64,000 bases of DNA from an uncultured Actinomycetes bacterium. GTDB taxonomy: Bacteria > Actinomycetota > Thermoleophilia > RBG-16-64-13. Location: the NCBI GenBank assembly GCA_963841735.1, contig CAWJDT010000005.1, positions 224,001-288,000 of the forward strand, read 5' to 3'. The notes beneath the pieces are model-generated. The model ran no database searches. It was not told the origin of the DNA and saw nothing but the letters and a program-made list of their open reading frames with translations. Numbering within the stretch: the stretch's first letter is position 1; each line of letters opens with the position of its first letter. A program made the translations under genes and the position numbers. Shown here in pieces: positions 21,745-41,862 of the stretch.

Positions 21745-22947
21745 TCACCGGGAGGCGCGGAATCCAAAGGCTGTGTTGGTGCTGCCTGGCACACTGCCCA
21801 AATCAAGGTTAAGCACGCCCGCTTGGCCGCCATCGCTCCAACGGCCGCCACGCCGAAAACCACGTAATGATGCGTCGCTAACTGAGCTATACAGCTGGCC
21901 AACACCTTGGCTAGAGTTCCAAGTGTCTGAACCAGACAAGCCGATACTTCTAGGGAGAGGATTTGCCGGCAAGGAGCCCGGCTCTGTCACGGCGGTCCAT
22001 TGCTTCCAGGCGAAGGCGCCTTCTCCAGTAATGCCCGGCTGGCCGCCGGTCGTCTGGCCAGCTGTCCATTCCGAGACATTACCTGCAAAGTCCCAGATTA
22101 CTTCTCCGTTCGTGAGAGTGAGCGTACGGCTCTGGTTGCCGCTAGCGCTTCCAGTGCCGTAGTAGCCGTTAGAGTCGTTTGAATCGGCTGCCAGGGCGTT
22201 TGTCGGATCATTGTCATTGTGTCCCGAGTAGATATAGCCGGAGCCGACGCTCCCGCCGCTCCAGTTGCTGGCGACGGCCAAGACGTTCTGGGCGACTGTC
22301 ATCCATTCGGCTTCGGTAATCAGGTGGCAGCCGTCGCAACCGACAACATTGGAGCTGTAAGCAGCGGCATTGGTCTGGTTGATGCTGACCCAGGGTGCGC
22401 CGGAGGCTTGTGAAACGGGGACGGTGCCTCCGGCGTTCTTGGCTTCATACTTCATGAGGCAGAAGTCATTGGTGCCGTACGTGCCACTGCCAGGAACCGG
22501 TATGAAACCGGAAGGACAGGCCGAGCCAACCGATGAGCCGCTGCCGGTGGTGGCTATGGCCGGGGCGGTCATGTCGGTAACGGAGTAGCTGGCAGTGCCG
22601 TTGGTACTGGTCAAGTGGAAGGTCTTGCCGGCTATCTGGCTGTAGACCAGCGTGTTGCCCAAGCTGGTCTTCAGGCAGTAGTTGGCATCTACAGTGGGCG
22701 CGGTTGGGCAGTTGCTGCCGTCCAGCGACGTGGGGTAGGAACCATAGAGCGTGTTGTAGTTCTTGAGCAGGGTTGAGGCATTGGCCAGGTCAGACTGCAG
22801 AGAGCTGACCTTGGCCCTATTGGATATACCTGAATAGGAAACGATGGTTATGGCGGCCAGGATGCCGATGACGACAATGACAACCAGAAGCTCGACGATG
22901 GTGAAAGCAGGACGTCTGGTTGGAAACAGCTTATCTATAATACGCAT
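21745..22947 (-). CDS. Prepilin-type N-methylation domain plus FGE-sulfatase (CLec-fold) protein
   Basis: AFTIVELLVVIVVIGILAAI; FCLMKYEA, LITEAEW, DFAGNVSEW, RGGRW...FGFRASR C-terminus. Confidence 0.85.
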   Translation of the reverse strand: MRIIDKLFPTRRPAFTIVELLVVIVVIGILAAITIVSYSGISNRAKVSSLQSDLANASTLLKNYNTLYGSYPTSLDGSNCPTAPTVDANYCLKTSLGNTLVYSQIAGKTFHLTSTNGTASYSVTDMTAPAIATTGSGSSVGSACPSGFIPVPGSGTYGTNDFCLMKYEAKNAGGTVPVSQASGAPWVSINQTNAAAYSSNVVGCDGCHLITEAEWMTVAQNVLAVASNWSGGSVGSGYIYSGHNDNDPTNALAADSNDSNGYYGTGSASGNQSRTLTLTNGEVIWDFAGNVSEWTAGQTTGGQPGITGEGAFAWKQWTAVTEPGSLPANPLPRSIGLSGSDTWNSSQGVGQLYSSVSDASLRGFRRGGRWSDGGQAGVLNLDLGSVPGSTNTAFGFRASR

Positions 22948-23065: not shown

Positions 23066-24313
23066 ATGACAGACAATCAAAACAACCCTCCCTACCAGTC
23101 GGCCCTCGATATTCCATCGATTGCGAAAATGGCCGACGAGCTGCAGACTGCCGGAAGGCTGACGCGTGTGTTCGGGCGAAAGCATCGCGCGGAGATCTTG
23201 AAGATCGAGGCCCAGCTGCATCGGCTCGTTGGGATCGTCGATCGCTTCTATGCCCTGTTGGGGCCTCGTCACTGGATCTTTCACGACCGGTTGAATGTCG
23301 AACAAATCGCGGACCTACTCGACCTGCCGGTGGACGAGGCCGAGCGCAGACTAATTGAGCTGTACATGGAGCCCGAATCTCTCCGATTCGCGATTCTCGG
23401 ACTGAACCATTTCCCAGCCATGCGATTACGCATGCATCTGTTGGAACGAGCCGAGAAGGATTACCACGAGAAGCGCTACTACTCGACCGTCCTCGTGCTG
23501 CTGGCCGTCATGGATGGATTCGTGAACGATTTCGAGAACCAGCATCGAGGTCTGCACACGCGGTCCGAGGAGGAAATGAGCGCATGGGATAGTGTCGTCG
23601 GGCATCACCTCGGCCTAACGAATGCTCACAGGACCTTCACGAAGAGCACATCAAAGACGAGCGATGAAGAGGTCTTCGATCTCTATCGGAATGGCATCGT
23701 CCACGGCACTATCGTGAACTTCGACAATGACGTCGTGGCAACCAAGGCGTGGAACCGGCTTTTTGCCGTCTGTGACTGGGCAACTAGCGAGGAACGCCGC
23801 CGAGTCGAGCCCGAAGCAGAGCCGACTTGGCGAGAGCTATTTGCACAGATGGCCGAGAACCAGAAAGCCAGAAAAGCGCTAGATGAGTGGAAGCCGTCGG
23901 TGCTGGAGGCTGGAGCGCCCGGACTGGAATCCAACGAGGTCTTTGTTAGGGCGAATGAGTACCTCTCCCTCTGGAAGCGGGGCAACTACGGCCGCATGGC
24001 TCCGTTCCTGTCCAAGCTCGTCGCGGAAGACTCGGACAAAGCCACTGCCGGGATGATTCGCACGGAGTACAGCACCTTCCCGCTGACGGCGTTCACCATC
24101 ACTGCAGTCAGGCATGACGTGCCGGCAATCTGTGAGGTCGAAGCGGAGCTGGAGTTCGGTCCTGAGCGCAAGAGTGCGCGCATGCAGTGGAACCGAGAGG
24201 GCGACGACTGGGTGCCGGTATCACCAAACCAGCCAGGTGAGTGGCGACTGGTGCGTTGGGGTCCTCTCGCCATGATGCAGCCCGAACCAGCTGGCGAGGA
24301 CGAGACGAGCTAG
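23066..24313 (+). CDS. Putative HEPN-domain protein (defence candidate)
   Basis: RNGIVH (RX4H) preceded by a helical YYSTVLVLLAVMDG segment; TATAAT 6 nt before ATG. Confidence 0.6.
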   Translation: MTDNQNNPPYQSALDIPSIAKMADELQTAGRLTRVFGRKHRAEILKIEAQLHRLVGIVDRFYALLGPRHWIFHDRLNVEQIADLLDLPVDEAERRLIELYMEPESLRFAILGLNHFPAMRLRMHLLERAEKDYHEKRYYSTVLVLLAVMDGFVNDFENQHRGLHTRSEEEMSAWDSVVGHHLGLTNAHRTFTKSTSKTSDEEVFDLYRNGIVHGTIVNFDNDVVATKAWNRLFAVCDWATSEERRRVEPEAEPTWRELFAQMAENQKARKALDEWKPSVLEAGAPGLESNEVFVRANEYLSLWKRGNYGRMAPFLSKLVAEDSDKATAGMIRTEYSTFPLTAFTITAVRHDVPAICEVEAELEFGPERKSARMQWNREGDDWVPVSPNQPGEWRLVRWGPLAMMQPEPAGEDETS

Positions 24314-26199
24314 TCCAATACTCTGACGTGCTCCAGCGTGATTGACAGACAGTCGGGTATCTTGCCACCGGCAAGCAAGCAGGCATCGTGGTATGTCCAA
24401 GCATCCTTGCCAGCGAATCCAAGCCCTTGTGATACGAGTTCGTCCCTAGCCGCAACCCACTCCGGCCAGGAATCGTGAACTAGCGCCTCCAAGGTCGGCT
24501 CATTGAAGAATAGACGATCGGCCACCTTCCCTGAGGGCCAGTCGATTTCGCTGCAGCCGAAGAACTTCAGCAGTTTGCGGTTCCAGGACTTGGTGTTTTC
24601 TATACTCGACTCCAGGTCTTTTTCGCGCTTGGAGTCAGCTGCGGCCTTTGCTTCAGCCAGCTTATCCTCAAGTTGTCGATCGTTGTCCACGACAACTACT
24701 GCGGGTACTCCCAGCCGCTCCAAGATTACGAATGGCAGGAGCACGCCCGTCTTACCTCCGCATTCTGCGACGCACACTCCGTTGCTGACCAAGCTCTGCA
24801 CTAGCTCCGAAGCACCATTGAACATGCCTCTGTCCGTCGAGCCCTCTACAAGAAGAACCCTATCAGCGAACAGCGCCTCGGCTAGAGAGCCCATGCACAC
24901 GCCATCGAGCTGGCGCTTGACGCTTGGTTCATCCACGTAGCAATCTAGGCGCGCTAGCACCTTGTCCACGGAAGATCCCGAAACTGACACCGCGCCTTGA
25001 CTGCCGCCGCCTGAACGGCTGACCCGCCTGATCTGATGAAAGGCCCGGGGTTCTATGAAATATGGGCTATGAGTTGCGTATGCGACTTGCACGCCCTGGT
25101 CAGGGTTCTTCGCTAGATCACGCAGGACCGACGCAAAGTTGCGAGCCTGCAGGGGATGCTGAAAGAGTTCGGGCTCCTCAATTGCGAGGCAGATCGTGCC
25201 TTGCTCTCCCTTGCCCTTTCCGCGCTCAGCCAGCAGCTGAAGAGCTGAGATCAACAGGGCGCGCTGGAAACCGTGTCCCTGTCTTTCCACGGTTGTCTCA
25301 GTGTCGTCGTCCATGATCTTGACTTTGAACTGCGCCTTTTGCTGCGGAATTGCTAGGTCCTGCGCGCTGACCTGAACTTCGCGCCCTGAAGTGAAGGCGG
25401 ACACGGCCGAGGTCATCCTCTCGGAAAGCTCCTTGAGCTGCTCTCCAAAATGCTTACCGTGGATGTCTGCCTGCTCAGCAGCCACCTTAGCCATCAACTC
25501 GGCAAGGTCGGCGTCCGCGCCAGACCGATCGACCGCTTGTTCGAGGACGCGGCCGATTATGGCATTTCGGTTGTCTTGTGCTTGTTCGCTCGCGCGCAGG
25601 TCGGCGGTTACAAAGACGTAGTCGAAAAGACCCGTCATTACAAATTGGCCGTTGAAACCGAACAGGTGAGTGGTCGATGAGATATCAACATCTTCTAGCT
25701 TATCGGGGTTGTCTGCTTCCCACTGATCCAGCGCGGTCAGCCGCCCGGCATCGTTCCGAACCGATGGAAGCCCGAGGTCGGGGCGAGCAACTCTTAACTC
25801 GTCATATCGCTCCCCACGTTCGGTTGCGTTAATCCCCTCACGAACACTCGCGAACTCCGGCCGGGCTCTGCCCTTTCCATAGAGCTTATCTTTGCCGTCT
25901 TGCCAATGCTTCCAGAGGGTTACAGCGTCTCTCCCTGGTACGGCATAGCGACCTAGTGCTTCCCGATCCTTGTCTGTCAACCCAGCGAACTCGACTGACA
26001 CTTCAATTTGCTTTTCTTCCGCTCCCGAGAAGACATCGTCCTCGGTAATAGTGCCGCCATTGAAGAACCAATCAAGAGCTCGCAGAATGGTAGATTTCCC
26101 GACTCCATTCGGCCCGATGAAAGTCGTTACATCGTCGAAGTCGACAGCGACGTCGTCTAGGCAGCGGAAACCGACGATGTGAACCTTCTTGATTCGCAT
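24310..26199 (-). CDS. OLD-family ATP-dependent endonuclease (ABC ATPase plus TOPRIM)
   Basis: GPNGVGKS Walker A, IEEPELFQHP Walker B, THSP, LFADRVLLVEGSTD and DND TOPRIM motifs. Confidence 0.9.
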   Translation of the reverse strand: MRIKKVHIVGFRCLDDVAVDFDDVTTFIGPNGVGKSTILRALDWFFNGGTITEDDVFSGAEEKQIEVSVEFAGLTDKDREALGRYAVPGRDAVTLWKHWQDGKDKLYGKGRARPEFASVREGINATERGERYDELRVARPDLGLPSVRNDAGRLTALDQWEADNPDKLEDVDISSTTHLFGFNGQFVMTGLFDYVFVTADLRASEQAQDNRNAIIGRVLEQAVDRSGADADLAELMAKVAAEQADIHGKHFGEQLKELSERMTSAVSAFTSGREVQVSAQDLAIPQQKAQFKVKIMDDDTETTVERQGHGFQRALLISALQLLAERGKGKGEQGTICLAIEEPELFQHPLQARNFASVLRDLAKNPDQGVQVAYATHSPYFIEPRAFHQIRRVSRSGGGSQGAVSVSGSSVDKVLARLDCYVDEPSVKRQLDGVCMGSLAEALFADRVLLVEGSTDRGMFNGASELVQSLVSNGVCVAECGGKTGVLLPFVILERLGVPAVVVVDNDRQLEDKLAEAKAAADSKREKDLESSIENTKSWNRKLLKFFGCSEIDWPSGKVADRLFFNEPTLEALVHDSWPEWVAARDELVSQGLGFAGKDAWTYHDACLLAGGKIPDCLSITLEHVRVLD

Positions 26200-26364: not shown

Positions 26365-27237
26365 TCACCGTTTTGGAAACAGCCCGCCAAAGAGGAGTCC
26401 GAGATACAAGAACGCCATGTCCTCATCGTCGTCCCTGTACGCGTCAAGAGCCTTCCTGGCCCTGCCCGCCGCCGTCTTGAGCTTCGACAGAGCCTCTGAA
26501 TGCTTGGCTTCACTTGAACAGGGGTGGATTCTTCCGCAGGCACCCTTGGGGTCGTTCATGGCAGCGAGTTCATGGCCTTCGAGACTCTCAAGGATCAGGC
26601 ACAGGTCAAAGACGTGGATATAGAGAGACTGCTTCGCTACGTGCTGCGCAGCGCGCATCTCCAGATAGAACGAGGAAATCGGGACGTTTAAGTAGTACTT
26701 CCACGCTTTAAGCAGTCGCGCGAGACCCTTTGCATCGCCCTTGTGCGGCTTTTCATTACATTCATTCACGTAGGCAAGGTGCTCATAAGGCGCGGAATCA
26801 ATCCAGCCGCTTCCAACGCTGGGGCCTGGGATGTCGTACACCAACTGACCGGGGCCACCTCTACCCGTGAGGAAGGCGGGGATGACTTCCCACGTCTCAG
26901 CTCCTCCAGCGAATCTCACAGCTACCGCCGGTCGGCGAATCGTGACCTCGGTCGAGGGGAATCTCTTCGAAAGCGCATCCTTCACCCACTCAAGAGCTGT
27001 GTACGACGATTCCGGCTTCGAGTCCTTCAGCCGCACCACGGCATCGACATCGCTATAGAACCGAATGCCTGTTCCGTGCGAGAAGGAGCCAGTCTCGAAG
27101 AAGTTGGCGACGCTTAGATTGTCTTCAAGAGCGGCCTTGACCGATGCACGGTGGGATGCGGCAGCGCTGCGCTCCGTTGCCGTAGGAGTCAGCCCGGATA
27201 GGAAGTCTTCAAAAGCCTGGCTCACAGTCCGCGCCAT
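26365..27237 (-). CDS. CD-NTase/SMODS nucleotidyltransferase 2
   Basis: TGSFSHGT...SDVD, WEVIPAF, LLKAWKY, ISSFYLE, LFGGLFP C-terminus. Confidence 0.88.
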   Translation of the reverse strand: MARTVSQAFEDFLSGLTPTATERSAAASHRASVKAALEDNLSVANFFETGSFSHGTGIRFYSDVDAVVRLKDSKPESSYTALEWVKDALSKRFPSTEVTIRRPAVAVRFAGGAETWEVIPAFLTGRGGPGQLVYDIPGPSVGSGWIDSAPYEHLAYVNECNEKPHKGDAKGLARLLKAWKYYLNVPISSFYLEMRAAQHVAKQSLYIHVFDLCLILESLEGHELAAMNDPKGACGRIHPCSSEAKHSEALSKLKTAAGRARKALDAYRDDDEDMAFLYLGLLFGGLFPKR

Positions 27238-27246
27238 ACGATTCAC

Positions 27247-28122
27247 CTATCCATATGCTGGAAAATCATCGCCAAGTATGATTCCCCATAGCCTTATGGC
27301 TTCTTCATGATCTCCGTCTCGCTGCGCCTCGATTGCATCTGAGGCCCGGCCGTGAGTTGAAGAAAAAGACTGCTTCAGGTCTGATTCTTGGAGGGGAGTG
27401 AGGCTCGCCCCAAGATCGCCGCCATAGCCGTCCGGGTCCTGAACGTGGATGTAGCCCCCGGCCCATTCGAAGAACTTCTGAAGTCCTATCGCATGGTTAC
27501 TACTCATGGTTGAAAACGCAGCCCCGACCATTGCCTCAAGGTGCCATGAGCCGAGCCGCTTGCTGTGTTCGTTGTTCCATCGCTTAAGAATTCGCACCCG
27601 TCGTCTGAACTGGCCAGACAAGGCCGTATCGCGGTCCTGAGCCCACTGCTCCTGCTTTGGCGGGTCCGTCTTTATCCAGGAACCGTCACCAGCCGGCAGG
27701 AAATAGCCTCCACTATTCACGCCGAAGACCGGCGCGATATCGACGTGTAATCCGTCTTTGTAGAAGAGCCTGACTGCTTGGCCTCGTGCTCCAACTTGTT
27801 GCACTTCAGTGCGGGCGTCTATCCTGCGTGTAACCCAGTAAAGGAAGCTTTGAGAGTCGTGCCGGTACTTCTCGAAGACCTGATTCTTGTTAGTAAAGAC
27901 AGCCAGAACGTCTATGTCATCGAGCGGACGAATCATCGTTCCTCGTGCCCCGGACCCCATCAACCGACTGGTCTTGAGTGGTACGTCGCAGTCAGCGGGG
28001 AATGACTCATCCAGCAGTTCCTTGACCCGAGCCGCTCGACTGACCATCGTCACTCGCTGCGCCTCGGTCAAGACGATCGCAGCTGCGAATTCCTTGAAGG
28101 CTTGCTCAACCGTCCTGGCCAT
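27247..28122 (-). CDS. CD-NTase/SMODS nucleotidyltransferase 1
   Basis: MGSGARGT...DDIDV, VDIAPVF, WIKTDP, ILKRWN, GSWHLE, WGIILGDDFP. Confidence 0.88.
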   Translation of the reverse strand: MARTVEQAFKEFAAAIVLTEAQRVTMVSRAARVKELLDESFPADCDVPLKTSRLMGSGARGTMIRPLDDIDVLAVFTNKNQVFEKYRHDSQSFLYWVTRRIDARTEVQQVGARGQAVRLFYKDGLHVDIAPVFGVNSGGYFLPAGDGSWIKTDPPKQEQWAQDRDTALSGQFRRRVRILKRWNNEHSKRLGSWHLEAMVGAAFSTMSSNHAIGLQKFFEWAGGYIHVQDPDGYGGDLGASLTPLQESDLKQSFSSTHGRASDAIEAQRDGDHEEAIRLWGIILGDDFPAYG

Positions 28123-29011
28123 CGCTTGCCCCCGGCCCGATGTTTCTCGCCGCATACTGCATGTCTTCTTCGAAAGAAGGAACAAGTGCCTTGTAGAACC
28201 ATTCTGGAACTAGCGGAGCAATCTTGCGCAGCCGGAATATTCCGTCCTGCAGCTCCCTCAACGGTTGCACCTCGCCAGGGAGGTGGGAGAGAAGGCTATC
28301 AACCTCATCCTCCAACAACTGGCGACTACCAGCAGCCTGAAAATGCTCGCGCGCTAGTTCGCAAGCGTCCAGCAACGCTGGCAGCGAGGGCAACGCGATG
28401 GTTGTAAGGTAAGCCGCCAGGGTCGCGTTGCCAGTCAAAGCAAGTGCAACACCGGCTAAGAACCAGAGCACCGCCGCGCCTGCCAGCACCCACGCGTAGG
28501 CGTAGTGCTGTCTGCGAGCCCATACTGCATTGGATCTCAGGCAGATGAGGACCGAATCGGGCCAAGCGTGCGCTGCCTGCGTTGGATACCAATCGCGTAC
28601 GGAGGCAAAGGGCGCCTCTCCCTTGCTCGCGTTCCGTATCTCCTCTGCGGGAATTGGCTTGCCAAGGACTGGGTTCCATGGCAACCCGAGGACATCGCAG
28701 TCGAACATCTCTTGCGCGAGCGCGCCTTTGATCCGACATCGGTCACGCCATGGACTAATCAGAACCCGGGAGACGAAGATCCAAACTCCGGCGAGGGCTC
28801 CGAGAAGCGGCCCGTAGGTCGGAGCGATAAAGAAGATCAACGGCGCGACTAGCGCAAGCAAGAGTGCCACTGAACGTCCCGCAAGTTGCATCCGTTTTGC
28901 TCGTCCGTAGTAGCAGCCCGCCGCAGTTTGGCGACGGAGGTTAGCTTCGCTCCTCTGTCTGCATCCGATGTCGGCCATGGTCGGACGACGTTCCACAAAA
29001 CGATGAGTCAT
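28106..29011 (-). CDS. SMODS-associated 4TM (S-4TM) putative pore-forming effector
   Basis: Two TM pairs; QEMFDCDVLGLPWN, RDWY, CLRSN, ELQDGIFRLR, LVPEWFY motifs; adjacent to the CD-NTases. Confidence 0.85.
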   Translation of the reverse strand: MTHRFVERRPTMADIGCRQRSEANLRRQTAAGCYYGRAKRMQLAGRSVALLLALVAPLIFFIAPTYGPLLGALAGVWIFVSRVLISPWRDRCRIKGALAQEMFDCDVLGLPWNPVLGKPIPAEEIRNASKGEAPFASVRDWYPTQAAHAWPDSVLICLRSNAVWARRQHYAYAWVLAGAAVLWFLAGVALALTGNATLAAYLTTIALPSLPALLDACELAREHFQAAGSRQLLEDEVDSLLSHLPGEVQPLRELQDGIFRLRKIAPLVPEWFYKALVPSFEEDMQYAARNIGPGASDGQDG

Positions 29012-31122
29012 GCAGTCTTCTTCCGCTCACCGTTTGAGTGCCAGGCGAAGCCGCTGAGGTCGCGAACGGAACCGATTGTTGTGAGCAGCTGCGCGTTAGC
29101 AATGACCCGCTCGTCGTTCAGCGACAGCTTGATTCCGGCTTCGCTCATCCGCCGTATCTTCGACGCTGCTGAGCCAAGAGCATCCGACCTGGCGGCCGGG
29201 CGCGTTCCTTCATCCTTCCGGCAGACGACTATGGCGTCAATCTGAATGGGGCTCTTCGCCTGCGACTTCGGAGTCGCCCCGGACATCTCGGACTTGACGG
29301 GATGAGCATTGACGACGACGAAGCCGGATTCGACCACGGCCCTCGCTACGGAGTCCCATCCTTCGTCTCGCGAATGATGGTAGGTGAAAACCAGGAGCCC
29401 CGAAGGCTTCAAGACACGATGGCACTCGCGAAAGACGGAGGCCAGCTTATGGCTAAACAATGTCGCTTGCGCGTCTTGGACTTCCCCGGCGGAACGAGTG
29501 CTGCCGGATTCCTTGACGAAGCCTCGCGGAGTCAGTTGTTGCCAGGCATAGAAGAAATCGGCGAGTTCGGAATAGTGCACGTTATCGAAGAAGGGCGGAT
29601 CGGTCACGACGAGGTCAATACTGCTGGCAGGAAAGCCGGTTTCGCTGGAATCGCCGCACGAAAGATAGATCGCTCGTCCGCTCCTGTCGCCGTTAAGGGG
29701 AGTGTCCATGTGGACTTGTCCAGCAAAGGCCGCCGAACACTGCACTGCCTGGCCACTGCTAGAACCAACGATCTCCAAGGGATTGCGCCGGTAACTGATC
29801 GCTTTCAGCAGACGACCAGCGAACAAGCCCGAAAAGCTTCCGGAACTCTTCGAGGTTCCCCATATGTTGGCCTCAATTGGTGTTCGTTCCGGCTTCAAGA
29901 TGTGATGAGAGAACATATGTCGGACTGCGCCGGTGCCTTCGCCCTTGTATGAGGCGAACATGTTGTTGAATTCGAGAGCGCCGGAGAACAAGAGCAACAG
30001 GGCATCTCTCGATTCGGTGTCTTTCACTTCGGAAATGGCCCGATGCAGCTTCGCGAGTCCCAGCAGTTGCCGATCGTTGTGGAAGTCTCGCCAGCGCTTG
30101 AACCCGTAACTAATGGCCTGACGGGTATTGTTGCCATCCGCGAGTTCCAACGAGGGAACGGATAGAGCACCTTGCTCCAATTCTCGCTTCAGCTCGCTGG
30201 AGCATTCCTCGTAGCGCGCCAGATCCTGCGCGTTTGCGGCCAAGTACTCCTTGCGTCCCTCCCGCGTCAGGACGAGCTTGGCATACAAGCGAAACGACGA
30301 CGGAGCCTCCCCAGATAGCGTGTCAAGCACTCGAAAGTCGTTGCGGCAAGAAGGGCAAGTGGCCGAGCGACCGTTCACAACGCCAACGTCCTGGTTGAAG
30401 TCGTGTCCGCAGCGATCGCAAGTCGCGTCCGGCTGATCGTATCTGCCCTCAAAGATTTGGTCGCATTTCGGGCAAAGCACTTGGACTTCTGGCTTTCGAC
30501 GCGGATAGGCGTTCCGCGCAAATACCCAAGAGGAAAAGAGATCAACAGTGCTTCGACAGGTTGGACAGCCGGCCTGCATCACCCAGAAGTAGTAGAGAAC
30601 CTCGCACTGTTCGCCCCTGCTGTCTTCCGAGGCGTACATAGCGCGAAGCTCTTCACCAACAGAGGCTGAGAGCGAATCAAAGGCTCTTCGCAGCTTGATT
30701 TCGTCCAGCCCACCCAATGCCACTCGCACTGCCTCAGCCGCCACCGGGTTGATGTCGCGACCTACTGCGGTGAGCCCGAGCTTGTGAGCTTCTCCGATTG
30801 TAGTTCCAGACCCCATGAAAGGGTCAAAGGCAGTAACGCCTGCGTAGTCTTGCCTGCGATAGAACTCGCTCCGCAAGTCGCTATCGGCCGGAAGGAGGCA
30901 GCCGAGAAGGATTCCCCGGAACACGGAACCGAGCCTTTTCGCCCACCACTTGTGCGTGTGGTAAATCGGTCGGTGGATCTCCTTTCGCCAGCTCTCTCGT
31001 TCGGCGATGCCCCCTAGAAACTCAAAGTCAAAAGCATCGGTCTCTATGAGCGCTGGCTGCCCACCGACTACCTGTGCTTCCCGGCTCGCCAGAAGAGGCA
31101 GCGTCTCAACACTCGTCTTCAT
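29008..31122 (-). CDS. Zn-ribbon adenine DNA methyltransferase (DUF1156-like)
   Basis: HKWWAKRLGSVFR, DPFMGSGTT (motif I), four CxxC motifs, TDPPFFDNVHYSELADFF (motif IV). Confidence 0.88.
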   Translation of the reverse strand: MKTSVETLPLLASREAQVVGGQPALIETDAFDFEFLGGIAERESWRKEIHRPIYHTHKWWAKRLGSVFRGILLGCLLPADSDLRSEFYRRQDYAGVTAFDPFMGSGTTIGEAHKLGLTAVGRDINPVAAEAVRVALGGLDEIKLRRAFDSLSASVGEELRAMYASEDSRGEQCEVLYYFWVMQAGCPTCRSTVDLFSSWVFARNAYPRRKPEVQVLCPKCDQIFEGRYDQPDATCDRCGHDFNQDVGVVNGRSATCPSCRNDFRVLDTLSGEAPSSFRLYAKLVLTREGRKEYLAANAQDLARYEECSSELKRELEQGALSVPSLELADGNNTRQAISYGFKRWRDFHNDRQLLGLAKLHRAISEVKDTESRDALLLLFSGALEFNNMFASYKGEGTGAVRHMFSHHILKPERTPIEANIWGTSKSSGSFSGLFAGRLLKAISYRRNPLEIVGSSSGQAVQCSAAFAGQVHMDTPLNGDRSGRAIYLSCGDSSETGFPASSIDLVVTDPPFFDNVHYSELADFFYAWQQLTPRGFVKESGSTRSAGEVQDAQATLFSHKLASVFRECHRVLKPSGLLVFTYHHSRDEGWDSVARAVVESGFVVVNAHPVKSEMSGATPKSQAKSPIQIDAIVVCRKDEGTRPAARSDALGSAASKIRRMSEAGIKLSLNDERVIANAQLLTTIGSVRDLSGFAWHSNGERKKTA

Positions 31123-31909
31123 CAATATCGCTTTCGCTCAAGACCTCTGCGAAGTCACGGATTCTCACAACATCTGTGGCTGCACCTTTGGCCCGCCATG
31201 CTGTGAACCGATGCGCTGTCCCGGCCGCTGGGTTTGGCACACGGCTAGGCTCGATTTCATTGGTCTCAAGATCGAAGGAGTAACCAACAATTAGCTCCGC
31301 GGTCTCGACGCGAATGAGATCGCCGACGGGCACAAGATCATCATTGACTTCAGCCTCACTTGGCAGAATCAGTGTTACCCGATGTGCCAACCCGCCGGCA
31401 ATTCGGAACGGTGTCGGAGCAACGTACATCTTGCGGTCTCGTATCATGATGTCGCCGTAGCTGCCGAAGCCCTTAACGCTCTTGTTCTTGTGAACATAGT
31501 CATGCTGAGCGTTCAGGAAATCGCCGTGGCAAAGGACAAAGTCGAGTACAGGGTACTGATCACCGTCGGGGTCCTTTGGGTAGCGACCAAACACGTAGTA
31601 GATATCCCGCCCGTTATGAAAGCCAGCCGGAACCTGACTATTACAGTCGAAACTCGCATCCCTACCCGGGTAAGCTAGGCCCTTGATTTCGTAGCCGACA
31701 GGAACCGTGACAAGCCGGAAGTCGGGATAGCTATTCCTGCCCCCCGCCTCGTAATTGAAGCCGGTGCTTGCCACCCGATCCTTGAACCAATTCTGGAAGT
31801 GGAACTCCTTGTCGCTGCTGCTGACGCGGCGGATGAGGACTCCCCGGCCAATGGCACTCGCGCACTCCTTGAAGATGGCTACAGCAGTTTCGTGGGGCTC
31901 GTGTTCCAT
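31106..31909 (-). CDS. Putative type II restriction endonuclease (PD-(D/E)XK)
   Basis: YPDF...YEIK, NSQVP; overlaps the MTase start; GGAG RBS before ATG 31909. Confidence 0.7.
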   Translation of the reverse strand: MEHEPHETAVAIFKECASAIGRGVLIRRVSSSDKEFHFQNWFKDRVASTGFNYEAGGRNSYPDFRLVTVPVGYEIKGLAYPGRDASFDCNSQVPAGFHNGRDIYYVFGRYPKDPDGDQYPVLDFVLCHGDFLNAQHDYVHKNKSVKGFGSYGDIMIRDRKMYVAPTPFRIAGGLAHRVTLILPSEAEVNDDLVPVGDLIRVETAELIVGYSFDLETNEIEPSRVPNPAAGTAHRFTAWRAKGAATDVVRIRDFAEVLSESDIDEDEC

Positions 31910-32263
31910 GTGTTGTCTATCTCCAGTTATCTTCATTGACGTCGAGAAGCGGCCTCGGCTGCCGCCCCTGCCTACACTGTACAACTAGCATCGGACAGGT
32001 ACGAGGGTTTGGCTTTGCTTGTCTTGGAGCTCTTGCTGGTGGTTGAAGAGGGCGCCAATACTATACATATTTATAGCATGATGCCGCGACTTGACACAAG
32101 CCAGCGCACCGTACGCTTTTCGCCATTAACGAAATGAACAGCTGGCATCAGAGCGCCACTCACAAATCATCCTCCCTCTCGAAACTCCGGTCTTTTCTGG
32201 GGGGGTGCTAGTCTTCTTGAGACAGTGGACGACTAATTTGCGGAACCTCTCGGGGGGAAACGC

Positions 32264-33395: not shown

Positions 33396-34598
33396 TCAGC
33401 GGGAAACACGGAAACCGACGCTCGCGGACGTGTTGCCAGGCGCGAAGTTCAAAGCCAGGTACAGAACCCCAACGCCGCTGCCATCGTACCAATAGCCACC
33501 ACGAAGGAAGCCACGCGCCGCGGTTTCGCCAGCATAACTATATAGTCCGCCGACGCCGTTGCCGGTGTTCCAACTACTTGCGCCCGTAATGCCCGTAGAA
33601 GCAGGGGTGGCAGGGACAGTCAGGCTGCCAGGTGCGGTTACAGCTGTCCATTCTTTCCAAGCATACGTACCTTCGCCGGTTATGCCAGGTTGGCCGGTGG
33701 TTACTGTGCCACTTGTCCATTCCCAGACGTTGCCCGCCATGTCCCAGATGACTTCACCGTTGGTGAGGGTTAGGGTGCGTTTTTGGTCCGAATTGGACAC
33801 GTTGCCAGTGTCGCTGTAGCCATCACCAGTATTTGAAACAGCTAGGGCGTTGGCAGGTACGTTGTCGTTATGCCCTCGGTAGATGAAACCAGAACCAACC
33901 GTGCCGGTGCTCCAGTTGAATGCGACCGACAGAACGTTCTGAGCAATGGTCATCCATTCGGCTTCGGTGATCAGGTGGCAGCCGGTGCAGCCTGCTACGT
34001 TGGCGCTATTAGTGATGGCCGTAGTCTGGGAGATGCTGACCCAAGGTGAACCAGTCGGCTGACTGACCGGGACATTGCTGCCAGCGTCTTTGGCTTCATA
34101 CTTCATAACACAAAAGTCATTGGTGCCATAAGTACCGCTGCCGGGGACCGGTATGAAACCGCTCGGGCAGGCACTGCCGGTTGATGAACCATTGGCGGTC
34201 GTGGCGATGGCCGGAGAAGAGCCGTTAGTGACGGCGTAGGCGGTCGCGTTCTTGGTGGCCGTCAAATGGAAGGTTGAAGGAGCGACGCTGCTATAGGCCA
34301 GCGTAGTGCCGGTGCTTGCTTTCAGGCAGTACTTGCTATCCACCGTCGGAGCAGTCGGACAGTTGCTGCCATCAAGGGCGGTTGGATAAGAGCCGTATTC
34401 CACGCCGTACATCTTGAGCAGCCTGGAAGCATTGTCCAGATCGGATTGGACCGAGGCGACGGTGGCTCGGCTAGTGATGCCGGAGTAGCTAACAACCGTA
34501 ATCGCGGCTAGGATGCCAATGACGACGATTACAACCAAGAGCTCGACTATGGTAAAAGCCGGACGTCGATCCTTGGTCGGGCGCTTGTTGCTACGCAT
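33396..34598 (-). CDS. Prepilin-type N-methylation domain plus FGE-sulfatase (CLec-fold) protein, paralog 2
   Basis: AFTIVELLVVIVVIGILAAI; DMAGNVWEW; RGGYW...VGFRVSR; same length (400 aa) as 21745..22947. Confidence 0.85.
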   Translation of the reverse strand: MRSNKRPTKDRRPAFTIVELLVVIVVIGILAAITVVSYSGITSRATVASVQSDLDNASRLLKMYGVEYGSYPTALDGSNCPTAPTVDSKYCLKASTGTTLAYSSVAPSTFHLTATKNATAYAVTNGSSPAIATTANGSSTGSACPSGFIPVPGSGTYGTNDFCVMKYEAKDAGSNVPVSQPTGSPWVSISQTTAITNSANVAGCTGCHLITEAEWMTIAQNVLSVAFNWSTGTVGSGFIYRGHNDNVPANALAVSNTGDGYSDTGNVSNSDQKRTLTLTNGEVIWDMAGNVWEWTSGTVTTGQPGITGEGTYAWKEWTAVTAPGSLTVPATPASTGITGASSWNTGNGVGGLYSYAGETAARGFLRGGYWYDGSGVGVLYLALNFAPGNTSASVGFRVSR

Positions 34599-36520: not shown

Positions 36521-36727
36521 ATGAGTCGCACCCCAGAGCATCGCATCTTCATTCGATCAATCAGGAAGGACCCGCCTGATTACGTCAAACTTGGTCAGGC
36601 GCTTCTGCGGCTGGCGACCATGAAAGCAGCGGCAGAGGCCGAAGCTCCGACCAATAATGAGGCGGCCGACATACCGCCGCCTGTCAGGGTCGAGCCCGAA
36701 AGATCTGGGCAGGAGTCCGAATCATGA
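36521..36727 (+). CDS. Small hypothetical protein
   Basis: GGAGG RBS; ATGA overlap with the ATPase gene. Confidence 0.6.
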   Translation: MSRTPEHRIFIRSIRKDPPDYVKLGQALLRLATMKAAAEAEAPTNNEAADIPPPVRVEPERSGQESES

Positions 36728-38958
36728 GCGGAATTGTGAATGATCCAACTCTTGCCCTCGTCAGCCTCCTTGGTGCAGGAGCGGCGGCCGGTGGGATCGC
36801 GCTTCTGTCTGGGGAGCCTGAGGAACCTACCGTCTGGTTTCGCCTCAGCTGGCCACGTGAGGTGGACAACAAGGCCGTCGTCGGATTCCTGCGCACCATC
36901 GCCAGTGACCGTCAGCGCCATGTCGTGGCTCTGGAGGCTATCGGCAGCGGCGGCCAACTGTCTTATCGGATCGGCTTGGCCGAAAAGCGCGCCCAATTCG
37001 TCATTGCCCAACTGAAGTCCTACATCCCCGGCGTATCAGCCGAACTCATCGAGCATGAACAGACCCGCTGCCCGCTCTCCGCCTGGCAAGTCCGCATGAG
37101 TTCCCATCAGCGAGCCCTGCGTACCAGTCAGCCCGAGTCGATCGCCCGGGCCATTATCACCGCTCTGTCCACTATGAGGAGCCAGGAGACTGCCACCGTG
37201 CAATGGCTGCTCGGACCGCGCCTGGAAGCTGCCACCACATCGGAGGGTCTGCTGCGCACCACCTCCTGGAAGCAAACCCTCAAGGGCACCTTTGTGGAAA
37301 GCACCAAGCTCGACCCCGACACCCGCAAGGCCATTAAGGAAAAGAGCGAGGAGGCCGGATTCCGGGCGGTCTGCCGCATCGGTGTCCTCGCATCCAGCGA
37401 TCAGGCCGCGGATATCATCGCGAGCAGGCTGGTGGGCGCGCTTCGCACGGCGGAGGCCCCCGGCGTGCGCATAACACTTAGAAGAGAGAACCCGGAACGC
37501 ATCGCCCTGGCCAGGCCACCGAGAAGCTGGCCGCTCGCCGTCAATGTCGAGGAGTTGGCCTCGCTCCTCGGTTGGCCTCTCGGTGAGATGAGTTATCCCG
37601 GCATCAATCGGGAGGGCGCACGCCTTCTGCCGCCTAGTCCCATGGTTGCCCGGCACGGCCGCGTTCTTGCCGCCGCCAGCTACCCCGGAAGTGCGCAGAG
37701 GTTGGCTCTTAGCACTACCGACTCGCTACAGCACCTTCACTTGTTAGGACCGACCGGTGTCGGCAAGTCCACCCTCATGCTCAACCTCATTGTCCAGGAC
37801 ATGGCGGCCGGGCGCGGCGTGGTAGTCATCGACCCCAAGGGCGATCTCATCCAAGACGTGCTGGAGCGGGTGCCTATGGATCGCCAAAAAGATGTCGTCG
37901 TGCTCGATCCGGCGGACGAACGCCGCCCGGTAGGCTTGAACGTCTTGCAGGGCGGCGGACGCTCACGGGAGCTGATCGCCGATCAGGTGCTGGCGGTCTT
38001 TCATGATCTCTACCGAGAGAACTGGGGACCACGTACCCAGGACATCCTGCACGCCTCGCTGCTGACGCTGGCAGGCAAACCGGGTATAACACTCTGCGCG
38101 CTGCCGATCCTGCTATCGAATCGGGCCTTTCGCAAGTCAGTGACTCGCGACATCACCGACGGCATCGCCCTCAAGCCGTTCTGGAACTGGTTCGAGACCT
38201 TGAGCGAAGGCGAACGTCAACAGGCAATCGCACCGGTCATGAACAAGCTGCGGGCCTTCTTGCTGCGGCCTAGCATGCGCGCGGTTATCGGCCAGGCTGA
38301 GCCGCGCTTCGATATTGAGACCGTCTTTAGTAGCGGGGCCATCCTGCTGGTATCGCTCGCTAAGGGACTGCTGGGTCCGGAAGCCGCTGCGCTCCTGGGA
38401 TCGCTCACTATCTCCCATCTATGGCAAGCGGCCCTAGGACGCGCCCGGGTCCCAGCGAATTCGCGCTCTCCGGTCTTCATCCATATCGATGAGTTCCAGG
38501 ACTACATCCACCTGCCGACCGACCTGGCCGAGGTGTTGGCTCAGGCTCGGGGACTGGGCGTCGGGCTGACCCTCGCACATCAGCACCTGGCCCAGCTGCC
38601 ACCCGCCCTCAGGTTCGCCGTGCTGGCCAACGCTCGCTCGCGGGTCTGCTTCCAACTTGGGCATGAAGACGCCAAGCTGGTTGCGGCTGGACTGTCTGAA
38701 ATCGGCCCGCTCGACCTTCAGAGTCTAGGCCGCTATGAAGCCTACCTGTCTCTGGTGGCCGAAGGCAACGTCACACCGTACGCCTCCGGGCGCACTATCG
38801 CCCCGCCTGAGCCCAGCAGCAATGCGCAGGCCATCCGCCGGATGAGCCGCGAGCGTTTCGGTCGAGACCTAGCCGACATCGAGCGCGACATCGCCGCCCA
38901 ACTCGGTGAAAACGCCGCCCCCGAAGAGTCACCGATTGGCCGCAGGAGGTCATCATGA
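36724..38958 (+). CDS. VirD4/TraD-like type IV coupling ATPase
   Basis: N-terminal TM, HLLGPTGVGKST, VIDPKGD, IDEFQ, QARGLG...AHQ. Confidence 0.88.
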   Translation: MSGIVNDPTLALVSLLGAGAAAGGIALLSGEPEEPTVWFRLSWPREVDNKAVVGFLRTIASDRQRHVVALEAIGSGGQLSYRIGLAEKRAQFVIAQLKSYIPGVSAELIEHEQTRCPLSAWQVRMSSHQRALRTSQPESIARAIITALSTMRSQETATVQWLLGPRLEAATTSEGLLRTTSWKQTLKGTFVESTKLDPDTRKAIKEKSEEAGFRAVCRIGVLASSDQAADIIASRLVGALRTAEAPGVRITLRRENPERIALARPPRSWPLAVNVEELASLLGWPLGEMSYPGINREGARLLPPSPMVARHGRVLAAASYPGSAQRLALSTTDSLQHLHLLGPTGVGKSTLMLNLIVQDMAAGRGVVVIDPKGDLIQDVLERVPMDRQKDVVVLDPADERRPVGLNVLQGGGRSRELIADQVLAVFHDLYRENWGPRTQDILHASLLTLAGKPGITLCALPILLSNRAFRKSVTRDITDGIALKPFWNWFETLSEGERQQAIAPVMNKLRAFLLRPSMRAVIGQAEPRFDIETVFSSGAILLVSLAKGLLGPEAAALLGSLTISHLWQAALGRARVPANSRSPVFIHIDEFQDYIHLPTDLAEVLAQARGLGVGLTLAHQHLAQLPPALRFAVLANARSRVCFQLGHEDAKLVAAGLSEIGPLDLQSLGRYEAYLSLVAEGNVTPYASGRTIAPPEPSSNAQAIRRMSRERFGRDLADIERDIAAQLGENAAPEESPIGRRRSS

Positions 38959-39872
38959 CCCTCCCGTTCGCCCTCCCGCTCGCGTGGCCTTGGCTTTTCG
39001 AGACCACCTGCAAATCCGAGGCAAACCGCTTGCGCTGCGCGACGACTCTTAGTCTCTCTCGTATGCATTCTTCGAGAGACAAGGCTATGAGGCGCGGCCC
39101 CTCTGCTCATGGCGTTAGGCAGACTCTCAGTGAACGCGATGAAGCCATCATCAGGAGCGTAGAGGACTACCGCTATATGTCCTCCGGTCAGCTAGAGCTG
39201 CTGCACTTCTCCGACCAGGCCAGCCAACCGACCGCCGCCAGAACTTGCCGACGAGTGCTGTCGCGCCTCACCAAATTGGGCCTGCTATGGCAGCTTGAAC
39301 GACGCATCGGAGGGGTGCGGGCAGGCTCGGCCTCCTACGTCTATGGCCTGGGAGCGCTGGGCTATCGGATTCTGCATGAGGGCTCGCCACCGAGGCAGAA
39401 CGAACCGTCGACCCAGTTTCTCGATCACACGCTCGCCATCACCGGGCTGGCCGTCGATCTGCACGTCCAGGAGAGGAGCGGCTCGCTGGAGCTTCTCGAA
39501 GTCGCGACCGAGCCAAAATGCTGGCGGCCGTTCACCGTCGGCCTGGAAAGTAGCGAGACCCTGAAGCCGGACCTCTTCGTCTCGCTGCGCTCCGGTGGCT
39601 ACGAGTACCACTGGTTCGTCGAGGTCGATCTTGCCACTCATAGCGCCGCCTCGGTGCTTCGTAAATGTGCCATCTATCAGAAGTACTGGCAGACAGGCAT
39701 TGAACAAGACAGGTCGGGGGTATTTCCGAAAGTCCTCTGGGTCACTCCGTACACCCGGCGGCAAGCGCTAATTCGACGCTCGATCTCGGCCTCTCGCCAG
39801 CTTCACCCGGATCTCTTTCAAGTGTGCAGTCGTGAGGCCGCCGTGGCCTGCCTGACGGGGGAAGAGTCATGA
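38955..39872 (+). CDS. Replication-relaxation (Replic_Relax) family protein
   Basis: wHTH (LSERDEAII), FLDHTLAI, KPD...FVEVDLAT, FPKVLWV. Confidence 0.85.
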   Translation: MTLPFALPLAWPWLFETTCKSEANRLRCATTLSLSRMHSSRDKAMRRGPSAHGVRQTLSERDEAIIRSVEDYRYMSSGQLELLHFSDQASQPTAARTCRRVLSRLTKLGLLWQLERRIGGVRAGSASYVYGLGALGYRILHEGSPPRQNEPSTQFLDHTLAITGLAVDLHVQERSGSLELLEVATEPKCWRPFTVGLESSETLKPDLFVSLRSGGYEYHWFVEVDLATHSAASVLRKCAIYQKYWQTGIEQDRSGVFPKVLWVTPYTRRQALIRRSISASRQLHPDLFQVCSREAAVACLTGEES

Positions 39873-40999
39873 GGCCGCTGCCGCTCGGACAGGTCATGGT
39901 CGGCGACGCCCGCCAAGTCCTGGACAGCCTGCCGGAGCATTCGGTCGACTGCGTCATAACCAGCCCGCCGTATTACCGGCTGCGCAACTACCAGCACGAT
40001 GATCAGATTGGGCTGGAGGCGCATGTCGAGGACTGGGTGCGCGAACTGCGCGCCGTGGCCCGCAAGATCGCCAGAGTCCTAAAAGAGGAAGGAGCCTTTT
40101 GGTTGAGCCTTGGCGACACGTTCTCGCGCTCAACAGAAGACGGAGCACTGCCGAAGTCACTCGTTCTGGCCCCGGAGCGCTTGGCTCTCGCTCTTATCAA
40201 GGACGGGTGGATTCTGCGCAACAAGGTGGTGTGGGCCAAGACCAACCCCATGCCGACCAGCGTACGCGACCGGCTCAGCTGCACCCACGAGTACCTGTAT
40301 TTCTTCGTCCGCCGCCGCCACTACTACTTTGATCTGGATGCCATCCGCATGCCGCATGTCAGCCCGCCTAACAAGGTCAGCGCAAGCGCCGGGACTTGGT
40401 CCGTGCCGCCAGGCTGGCGCGGGCCGAATAGCGGGCGCAACGAGGGCTTGGGCCGACTCAAACGGGCGGGTCTGGCTGGGCATCCGCTCGGCAAGAACCC
40501 CGGCGATGTGTGGCGCCTGGCCACGGCTGGCTATCGCGGGCAGCATCACGCTGTATTCCCGGAACGCTTGGTCGAACGGCCGCTGCTTGCCAGCTGCCCA
40601 GAGAAGGTCTGCTCGGCCTGCGGCAAGGCCTGGACCCGGCGGAGAGCGAAGTCACTAGGTCACGTGGCCGTCACTGCAACGCTGGCCCCAAATTGCCCAT
40701 GCAAAGCAGGACCTCTCCCCGGCGTTGTCCTTGATCCGTTTATCGGCTCAGGCACGGTGGCGGTGGTAGCTGAGCGCCACAAACGCGACTGGATGGGAAT
40801 CGACATCAACCCGACCTTCTCATCGCTCGTCGCCGGTCGGCTGGGGAACGCTCCCGCTAAGTATTCAACAGAACCCGCCCGGTCCGTTTCTCGATCAAAC
40901 GCAGCCCATGCGCCAGGACGCCCTGCGCCCGTGGGCTGCGCCACACCGAGAAGGCACGGCAACGAAGACAAACACGGAATCAAGGAGGTCAACGGATGA
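39869..40999 (+). CDS. Orphan beta-class N4/N6 DNA methyltransferase
   Basis: TSPPYY, HHAVFP, VLDPFIGSGT. Confidence 0.9.
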   Translation: MRPLPLGQVMVGDARQVLDSLPEHSVDCVITSPPYYRLRNYQHDDQIGLEAHVEDWVRELRAVARKIARVLKEEGAFWLSLGDTFSRSTEDGALPKSLVLAPERLALALIKDGWILRNKVVWAKTNPMPTSVRDRLSCTHEYLYFFVRRRHYYFDLDAIRMPHVSPPNKVSASAGTWSVPPGWRGPNSGRNEGLGRLKRAGLAGHPLGKNPGDVWRLATAGYRGQHHAVFPERLVERPLLASCPEKVCSACGKAWTRRRAKSLGHVAVTATLAPNCPCKAGPLPGVVLDPFIGSGTVAVVAERHKRDWMGIDINPTFSSLVAGRLGNAPAKYSTEPARSVSRSNAAHAPGRPAPVGCATPRRHGNEDKHGIKEVNG

Positions 41000-41292
41000 A
41001 GACTCTTGCCATTCGCATGGAGGAGGATCAGCACGCCCAGATGAGCGTTCTCGCTCAGCTTTCCGGTCGGACCATCACCGACGAGATACGGGAAGCCATC
41101 GAGACGCACATCGAAAGCAAGCGTTCCAATCCCGAGCTGACGGCCAAGGCCCAGGACGTTCTCGATGACATCGAGCGTCAGGCGCACGTCCGCCAATACG
41201 CGATCATCACGCTGTTCGGAGAGGGCGCCAAGCCCGAGCCGAAAAAAGCCGACGCCCACAAAGAGCCGACCCCAAACACCCCGTCCAAGTAA
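40996..41292 (+). CDS. Ribbon-helix-helix-like DNA-binding protein
   Basis: MKTLAIRM beta strand then helices; ATGA overlap. Confidence 0.65.
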   Translation: MKTLAIRMEEDQHAQMSVLAQLSGRTITDEIREAIETHIESKRSNPELTAKAQDVLDDIERQAHVRQYAIITLFGEGAKPEPKKADAHKEPTPNTPSK

Positions 41293-41324
41293 CTTTTCTC
41301 TCGCCTGCAGCCACTCGGTGTTGC

Positions 41325-41366
41325 GGGGACCTGGTTCGCGGACAGAATCCGTCGAACCAGGTCCCC
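41325..41366. other. Long hairpin (terminator or oriT/nick-site candidate)
   Basis: 14-bp perfect arms GGGGACCTGGTTCG/CGAACCAGGTCCCC plus inner CGGA/TCCG. Confidence 0.6.
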
Positions 41367-41450
41367 AGGAATCACAAAATCCCTGCAAAACCGTTGTAGA
41401 ATTGTCCCTATGCGATGCGTTTTCGCATCGTTCCTGGTAGAATAGAGGGA

Positions 41451-41834
41451 ATGAAACCGCGACGAAGGCGGGGATTTGGGATGACAAAAGAAGAGACAGA
41501 AAGACTCGGCGAACTATTGAAGGCGAAGCGGCAACAGCTTGGCCTGTCAACACACCGCCTGGCGAAGCTGGCTGACGTTGACCAGGCCACGGTCGTCCGA
41601 ATCGAGAGCGGGGGTATCAGCGCGCCCCACTCTGACAAGCTCGCACGCATCGCGGCTGCGCTGGAACTACCTGCGAGCAAGGTCTTCGCCCTGGCCGGCT
41701 ACTTCTTCCCGAACGACCTGCCAGAGCTGTCCACCTATCTCAGGCTGCAATATCCGGAACTACTCGCAGAAGACAGAGTGAAGATCGAGCAACTAATTGG
41801 ACGACTAGAAAAGAAACGCAAAGTAGCTATCTAA
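41451..41834 (+). CDS. Xre-family HTH repressor
   Basis: LGELLKAKRQQLGLSTHRLAKLADVDQATVVRIESG; the start could also be 41481. Confidence 0.88.
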   Translation: MKPRRRRGFGMTKEETERLGELLKAKRQQLGLSTHRLAKLADVDQATVVRIESGGISAPHSDKLARIAAALELPASKVFALAGYFFPNDLPELSTYLRLQYPELLAEDRVKIEQLIGRLEKKRKVAI

Positions 41835-41862
41835 GGCAATGGGCCAGAAAGGAGGGAGGGTA

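Follow-up and report, generated by a model that had tools for sequence, protein, structure and literature searches.

Can one membrane effector serve two different cyclases in an antiphage signaling system based on cyclic oligonucleotides (CBASS), and if so, how? The question is raised by a 64-kb window of contig CAWJDT010000005.1 from an uncultured Actinomycetes bacterium (the window being the whole stretch of DNA analyzed), in which two genes for nucleotidyltransferases of the cGAS/DncV-like kind (CD-NTases), here called CdnA and CdnB, follow a gene for a SMODS-associating four-transmembrane (S-4TM) effector. Descriptions and tests of CBASS mostly deal with a single cyclase for each effector, and little is understood of how type I cyclases detect phage. 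An earlier note, made from the sequence alone, had described two divergent CD-NTases with one S-4TM protein, and we confirmed this description: CdnA and CdnB are 25% identical over 288 aligned positions and lie with the effector gene in one tightly packed operon. With moderate confidence, we read the operon as a type I CBASS in which two independent sensor-synthases would feed one S-4TM pore-forming effector and which would have been built by operon recombination.

The three genes are packed on the minus strand in the order S-4TM effector, CdnA, CdnB, with tight coupling at both junctions.

28106-29011, minus strand: S-4TM effector gene, 301 aa (Pfam PF18159, PADLOC PDLC00722)
28106-28122, minus strand: 17-nt overlap of the S-4TM and CdnA genes, with the S-4TM stop codon TGA at 28106-28108 and the CdnA ATG at 28120-28122 (direct sequence reading)
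27247-28122, minus strand: CdnA, a CD-NTase/SMODS cyclase of 291 aa from its ATG (PADLOC PDLC00823 type)
27235-27249, minus strand: CdnA/CdnB junction, with the CdnA stop codon TAG at 27247-27249 and the CdnB ATG at 27235-27237 (direct sequence reading)
26365-27237, minus strand: CdnB, a second CD-NTase/SMODS cyclase of 290 aa from its ATG (PADLOC PDLC00776 type)

A Shine-Dalgarno-like AGGTGA (27243-27248) overlaps the CdnA stop codon and leaves a 5-nt spacer before the CdnB ATG. The space between the two cyclases is too small for a promoter or an extra gene, and all three genes are predicted from their junctions to be translationally coupled.

The effector belongs to the S-4TM family over its full length, matching PF18159 (S_4TM) with an E-value of 2.4e-70 over profile positions 2-290 of 291 and the PADLOC 4TM effector PDLC00722 with 2.9e-70. 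Its four transmembrane segments form two hydrophobic pairs, at residues 41-88 and 170-214; an alternative start is possible at Met12. Across the eight genes between 23066 and 33352, a PADLOC scan returned only cyclase, 4TM, methyltransferase and OLD/GajA-like matches, and neither HORMA/TRIP13 nor Cap2/Cap3 (E1/E2, JAB) genes were found among these eight genes with Pfam or PADLOC. The locus thus has the composition of a type I CBASS, a cyclase and an effector without Cap2/Cap3 or HORMA/TRIP13, and departs from the canonical two-gene form in having two cyclases for one effector. A six-frame hidden Markov model (HMM) scan of the window revealed no further cyclase and no S-4TM or 2TM effector remnant, and the genome (8 contigs) contains exactly two SMODS matches, CdnA and CdnB.

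Both proteins are clear members of the SMODS family, scoring 58.9 bits (CdnA, E = 9.6e-16) and 57.4 bits (CdnB, E = 2.7e-15) against Pfam PF18144, for which the gathering cut-off is 26.5 bits. End to end, they match different PADLOC cyclase profiles, CdnA matching PDLC00823 (1.5e-87) and CdnB matching PDLC00776 (4.5e-117). Neither reaches the cut-off of the NCBIfam CBASS cyclase equivalogs NF041117 and NF041116; the NF041117 scores are 123.2 and 97.6 bits against a 200-bit equivalog cut-off, and at such sub-equivalog scores both proteins would receive only generic names from annotation pipelines. The closest solved structure for both is Pseudomonas aeruginosa CdnD (PaCdnD, 6P82; E = 1.2e-14 for CdnA and 3.3e-06 for CdnB). 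The alignment to PaCdnD (6P82/6P8U/6P8J) begins at the N-terminal helix and takes in the GS and DxD motifs; for CdnA it continues to the C-terminus. E. coli CdnC (EcCdnC, 6P80) is a further solved relative of both, and CdnA additionally matches cyclic AMP-AMP-GMP synthases (7LJL and others). Because the nearest solved structures are CdnD and CdnC, we place both cyclases provisionally near clades C/D, and these same solved relatives suggest that the cyclase product is probably trinucleotide-like. Unlike the type III CBASS of PaCdnD, the window shows no HORMA/TRIP13 gene among the eight scanned.

The motifs that the earlier note had pointed out, GS...DxD with a third acidic residue in each enzyme, are present and fall in family-invariant columns. 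The Pol-beta NTase catalytic set (GS, [DE]xD and a third acidic residue) is complete in both proteins: G56, S57, D69, D71 and D128 of CdnA are invariant in 30 CdnA-type sequences, and G50, S51, D63, D65 and E117 of CdnB are invariant in 18 CdnB-type sequences. We typed 117 cyclase open reading frames (ORFs) from the fetched loci with locally built HMMs. Where the A-type ORFs (A, CdnA-type; B, CdnB-type) cover the active site (79/80), all have GS/DxD/D except the one in locus L050, which has GA for GS (L-numbers designate fetched loci), and every B-type ORF that covers it has GS/DxD/E, including those of the 12 intact dual loci described below. The B-type glutamate is invariant and occurs also where the B-type gene is the only cyclase, beside a SLATT-type 2TM effector (L001, L003, L004, L005, L007 and L008); it is therefore a trait of the family that is compatible with function and does not signal decay. 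We considered CdnB as a pseudoenzyme and rejected this, as the glutamate is typical of its family and sole-cyclase B operons exist. By motif, then, both CD-NTases are predicted to be catalytically competent.

Two sequence comparisons in the earlier note fared differently. The N-termini, described there as nearly identical, do share 9 of 12 residues, but the stretch carries no special meaning: it is the first helix conserved in both families and also aligns to PaCdnD. The corresponding DNA is identical at 23 of 36 bases, but at only 3 of 12 third codon positions, and for this reason we rejected recent gene conversion between the 5′ ends of the two cyclase genes. The difference between KTDP in CdnA and DSAP in CdnB, in a segment that the earlier note presumed to select the nucleobase, is real, each version being conserved within its own family (W149, T152 and P154 are invariant in the A-type, and W145, P150 and H153 in the B-type).

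Is this pairing peculiar to the window? The trio was found again on a plasmid of Arthrobacter and in 12 of the 27 metagenome loci that have S-4TM next to an A-type gene. The searches came from three directions, B-centered loci, A-centered metagenome loci and plasmids, and gene order is written below with the sign >. The A-centered metagenome scan, made with a CdnA alignment, gave 80 loci: 43 with 2TM>A (six of which have a third type of cyclase downstream), 27 in which an S-4TM gene adjoins A, and 10 that are truncated or of other makeup. Among the 27 S-4TM-A loci, 12 contain an intact B-type gene, ten as B>S4TM>A and two as S4TM>B>A; since three of them (L053, L055 and L062) hardly differ from one another, the 12 represent about 10 distinct elements. 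Genes in the dual loci overlap or sit no more than about 30 nt apart. Four of the 27 lack B and any remnant of it, with 900 nt or more of sequence to either side, and are classed as A-only (the identical loci L015 and L016, plus L034 and L087), a fifth, L085, is A-only with a short right flank, and in L045 a different cyclase lies convergent. Eight loci have a left flank too short for classification. The judgeable loci thus comprise 12 intact dual loci versus 4 or 5 that are A-only.

The B-centered scan of a genome collection gave 8 loci, seven with 2TM>B and one (L002) with TRIP13-HORMA-cyclase>S-4TM>B. PDLC00776 occurs in 3 of 400 other genomes of the phylum, twice as 2TM>B and once as a frameshifted B followed by a 2TM gene, and one viral contig carries 2TM>B. 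Nine plasmid records matched CdnB, of which five were examined together with one record matched only by S-4TM. The conjugative plasmid of Arthrobacter sp. J3.49 (NC_019339.1) has B>S4TM>A, the Arthrobacter MN05-02 and Rhodococcus qingshengii plasmids have B>S4TM with no A remnant, and the Streptomyces rimosus plasmid record has SLATT>B. Counting the window, the trio is found in three gene orders, S4TM>A>B, B>S4TM>A and S4TM>B>A. The A+B pairing is recurrent but facultative, and annotated records such as NC_019339.1 already contain the trio without comment.

The facultative pairing bears directly on whether the two cyclases depend on each other. In an obligate partnership, as a heterodimer or by sequential synthesis, they would produce a messenger that neither makes alone; in the sequential case, one enzyme would make a linear or partial intermediate and the other would complete it. 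The genes are tandem and translationally coupled, the pairing recurs, and the family-specific differences after the third acidic residue are conserved, all of which would suit such a partnership. Against it, the A and B families are each also found as the sole cyclase, next to SLATT-type 2TM effectors (family PDLC00710) as well as next to S-4TM effectors that are closely related to the dual-locus ones. Gene order and partner vary as well (L022 and L091 join a different A clade to the same B clade), and the active sites are complete in both proteins rather than complementary halves. We consider a heterodimer or sequential synthesis scarcely probable, because related S-4TM effectors occur with A, with B or with both.

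The same distribution bears on a guard or decoy arrangement of the Panoptes kind, in which the product of one constitutive cyclase would hold S-4TM shut or act as bait while the other cyclase served as the induced sensor; phage sponges or nucleases that remove the product would then release the effector. Two synthases and one membrane effector are the minimum for such a design, and the concept exists for mCpol with S-2TMbeta (Panoptes, PMC12657218) and for minimal DACs (PMC13640721). Panoptes (OptS, an mCpol, with OptE, an S-2TMbeta protein) and PanDA resemble the window in placing a cyclic-nucleotide synthase beside a membrane effector. They differ from it in that their synthases are constitutive mCpol or DAC enzymes whose nucleotide holds the effector off. 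Here both synthases belong to SMODS, neither being an mCpol or a DAC, and the effector is an S_4TM protein, not S-2TMbeta. Related S-4TM effectors pair with A alone and with B alone, so under a decoy arrangement one nucleotide would have to activate, and another inhibit, a single S-4TM lineage. As in ordinary type I CBASS, each of the two families is also found as the only partner of SLATT/2TM effectors. We regard the decoy arrangement as very unlikely.

How the trios came about was examined with a cyclase tree (115 rows, quick search) and an S-4TM tree (30 rows). A-only, B-only and dual loci interleave within one S-4TM clade; for example, L087 (A-only) stands beside L022 (dual), and L108 (B-only) beside L060 (dual). 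In L022 and L091, B is about 70% identical to the main B clade and A falls below 50% identity with that clade's partners. The trees are most simply read as frequent recombination among single-cyclase operons, and B>S4TM>A looks like what would result if B>S4TM and S4TM>A merged via their common effector gene. Since B>S4TM occurs without A, S4TM>A occurs without B, and the S-4TM tree is interleaved, the simplest reading is also that either cyclase family would suffice to drive this S-4TM lineage.

The L001 and L002 loci carry near-identical B-type genes, behind a SLATT-type 2TM gene in L001 (5483-6867) and behind S-4TM in L002 (2182-6867). The latter is a TRIP13-HORMA-cyclase (type III) operon with S-4TM and a second, non-HORMA cyclase, and the two loci appear to record an exchange of effectors that is very recent. 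These B genes illustrate how freely cyclases and effectors change partners.

Such turnover raises the alternative that the trio is a by-product of recombination, the second cyclase being a passenger left by merged single-cyclase operons after the loss of one effector. A passenger would add nothing, or only redundancy, and would be heading for loss. This would fit the fast turnover of architectures, with A-only, B-only and dual loci interleaved on the S-4TM tree, and the near-identical B genes of L001 and L002 behind different effectors. It would also fit the different nearest relatives of the window's A and B genes and the occurrence of adjacent CBASS systems in defense islands. PF18144 is found in 27 of the 400 phylum genomes (including G198), and clustered SMODS genes only in G173 and G107, where a complete cyclase-effector pair lies beside further cyclases without a recognized effector (Cyc770 in G173, Cyc769 in G107). 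Several observations run the other way. Twelve of the 13 S-4TM loci with A- and B-type genes keep both open, with all catalytic residues. The combination arose in three or more gene orders and, on the cyclase tree, in no fewer than three A clades; translation of the genes is coupled, and the window shows no leftover of a second effector; and dual loci outnumber A-only loci among those that could be judged. We think a passenger origin unlikely, while giving it more weight than the partnership or the decoy.

Several further points weigh against our reading of two sensors for one effector. In L019, one of the 27 S-4TM-A loci, S-4TM and A are intact but B is split into three frame pieces, an observation that also speaks for a passenger. 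Among the loci read, only the window has exactly S4TM>A>B. In favor of the reading, three of the four closest CdnA homologues (P0002, P0004 and P0005) match close CdnB homologues (P0129, P0162 and P0125, respectively) in source, contig count and contig size (3782; 10276; 2 contigs with 4384), which suggests that the members of each pair lie on the same contigs and that close relatives probably share the pairing; these matches are indirect, and two other matches between the two sets of homologues, in which the sources differ, look like chance. Against it, the A-only S4TM>A loci L015/L016 form, on the cyclase tree, the sister branch of the window's CdnA (63% identity), and the window's CdnB groups with L001 (2TM>B), L002 (type III) and L017 (S4TM>B>A). 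As the nearest relatives of CdnA and CdnB differ, the trio may be a recently formed mosaic of uncertain benefit. A, B and S-4TM have co-diverged only in part (Pearson r of pairwise identities 0.58-0.70 over 13 dual loci), and the A genes of L022 and L091 are clearly swapped. The Pfam scan recognized no ligand-binding domain in S-4TM, and the W-x-x-[TS]-x-P segment, with its conserved family-specific difference, could point to different products of the two cyclases.

On balance, we favor two sensor cyclases acting on one effector because the operons recombine and either family appears able to drive the S-4TM lineage. The recurrence of the trio in several gene orders leads us to regard a two-sensor, one-killer CBASS as the most likely explanation. 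Each cyclase would be an independent infection sensor and synthase; whichever is triggered would open the shared S-4TM effector through the cyclic oligonucleotide that it makes, leading to death or arrest of the infected cell. The two enzymes would sense different cues, and S-4TM would respond to both products, whether these are the same or both are merely recognized. Such an OR gate would widen the range of phage cues, and with two sensors, escaping or inhibiting one would be less apt to silence the system. The trio itself would have arisen by recombination between single-cyclase operons. Among the four mechanisms offered in the earlier note (an obligate heterodimer, sequential synthesis, sensing of two different phage cues, and a decoy signal), the two-cue proposal fits best. 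A more specific version, in which the cyclases make different messengers and S-4TM accepts either, seems to us possible and on the unlikely side.

We compared the operon with systems in the literature. Toxicity of the E. coli EcCdnD12-4TM CBASS operon requires the CD-NTase catalytic aspartates (10.1101/2023.05.21.541620). That type I system, whose CD-NTase is of clade D, is like ours in being a minimal operon that pairs a cyclase with a multi-pass membrane effector without Cap2/Cap3 or HORMA/TRIP13, a likeness of gene content, and unlike ours in that the window has two non-orthologous cyclases per effector. The arrangement also recalls Thoeris operons with several ThsB genes. Each of TIR1 and TIR2 of Bacillus dafuensis is reported to protect against a different set of phages, and both to make a molecule that activates ThsA (10.1101/2021.01.06.425286). 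Several divergent sensor-synthases in one operon serve one effector there, a logic that we would extend to CBASS. The chemistry differs: the folds are TIR in Thoeris and Pol-beta NTase here, and the Thoeris signal and effector are described as a cyclic ADP-ribose isomer and a SIR2-SLOG NADase. The 2026 PanDA preprint leaves it open whether both products act on an effector that a DAC-family cyclase and a CD-NTase have in common (PMC13640721); the effector of that pair is given as 2TM-beta. Our literature search found neither a description nor a test of a CBASS with two CD-NTases and one effector; Burroughs 2015, Millman 2020 and their supplements may list such loci.

The operon is part of a longer packed run of minus-strand genes, in which the following neighbors lie on either side.

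31106-31984, minus strand: orf292, an ORF of 292 aa of unknown function
29008-31125, minus strand: DNA methyltransferase with zinc ribbons, 705 aa (PF01555)
24310-26199, minus strand: OLD-family ATPase-TOPRIM nuclease (PF13175, PF20469; PADLOC Old, 1.1e-56)

The OLD-family gene raises one more alternative, namely that S-4TM and CdnA form a complete CBASS and CdnB signals to the OLD nuclease as a second system. The gene adjoins CdnB across a 165-nt gap, and directly upstream of B in L056 stands an OLD gene (280-2247; 42% identical over 624 aa) that overlaps B by 4 nt. Pfam, on the other hand, recognized no SAVED, CARF or other nucleotide-sensor domain in the OLD protein, and a tblastn search with it over all fetched loci matched L056 only, the other dual loci showing no homologue. 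A promoter-like site lies between CdnB and the OLD gene, although promoter and terminator scans of this region of the window found sites no more frequent than in shuffled sequence. OLD nucleases are common stand-alone defense genes. We consider this division into two systems the least probable of the explanations discussed.

On the other side of the operon, the methyltransferase stop codon and the S-4TM start overlap by 4 nt. orf292 and the 705-aa methyltransferase recur directly upstream of 2TM>CdnA in L068/L069 (416-3270; 57% and 44% identity), and these two genes (29008-31984) may be a restriction-modification-like pair that travels with CBASS. In L091, L067, L085 and L034, hsdR or type III restriction genes lie directly upstream, in place of OLD.

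An FGE-sulfatase-like domain and a prepilin-type motif for N-terminal methylation are found in each of two 400-aa paralogues, 67% identical, at 21745-22947 and 33396-34598 (both minus strand). The pair flanks a block of about 10.4 kb (orf415, OLD, CdnB, CdnA, S-4TM, methyltransferase, orf292 and orf362), and the defense block looks as if it had been inserted between duplicated genes. About 5 kb from the block, mobile-element genes at 36724-43593 (plus strand) encode a coupling protein like TrwB, a Replic_Relax protein, an N6/N4 DNA methylase and a large serine recombinase; a search of the window with ARAGORN turned up no tRNA gene. Searches with the CdnA query gave nothing in 15 genomes from the same genus and just two weak matches among 36 from the same family, and PF18159 had a single match in the 400 other genomes of the phylum, in G198, with an internal stop; nothing else concluded here depends on G198. 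The operon is accessory DNA. A foreign-composition island was considered and rejected, since the GC content stays at 0.55-0.60 over 18-36 kb with no step at the operon.

Other loci with more than one cyclase turned up in the same searches. A second type of dual-cyclase operon has the order SLATT-type 2TM > CdnA-type > third cyclase type (L027, L032, L039, L046, L047, L075 and probably L059). The third type has its best match in PDLC00823 (1e-76 to 1e-80), forms its own clade and has GS/DxD/D intact; the downstream ORFs scanned in five of six such loci gave no HORMA/TRIP13 match. L074 (1-4864) has E1/E2 and JAB genes followed by a cyclase (PDLC00823), a 4TM effector (PDLC00724) and a CdnA-type cyclase, and by its gene content appears to be a type II CBASS with a second cyclase after the effector. 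In L112 (G173:C126, 2627-8423), three cyclases lie within 6 kb: a cyclase-E2-HNH/SAVED effector set is followed by a 513-aa cyclase without its own effector and then by a cyclase with a 2TM effector.

The trio represents a natural, recurrent and independently assembled three-gene system in which two cyclase families converge on one effector lineage. It allows one to ask whether each sensor cyclase has a distinct phage trigger, whether one membrane effector can read the products of two synthases, and whether stacking sensors protects against phage escape and anti-CBASS proteins. If the two cyclases do make different messengers, the operon would contain a built-in counter to signal-specific phage sponges and nucleases of the Acb1, Acb2 or Tad-like kind, in addition to sensing two cues. 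The A+B+S-4TM trios would then be the CBASS counterpart of multi-ThsB Thoeris, with one effector integrating two messengers.

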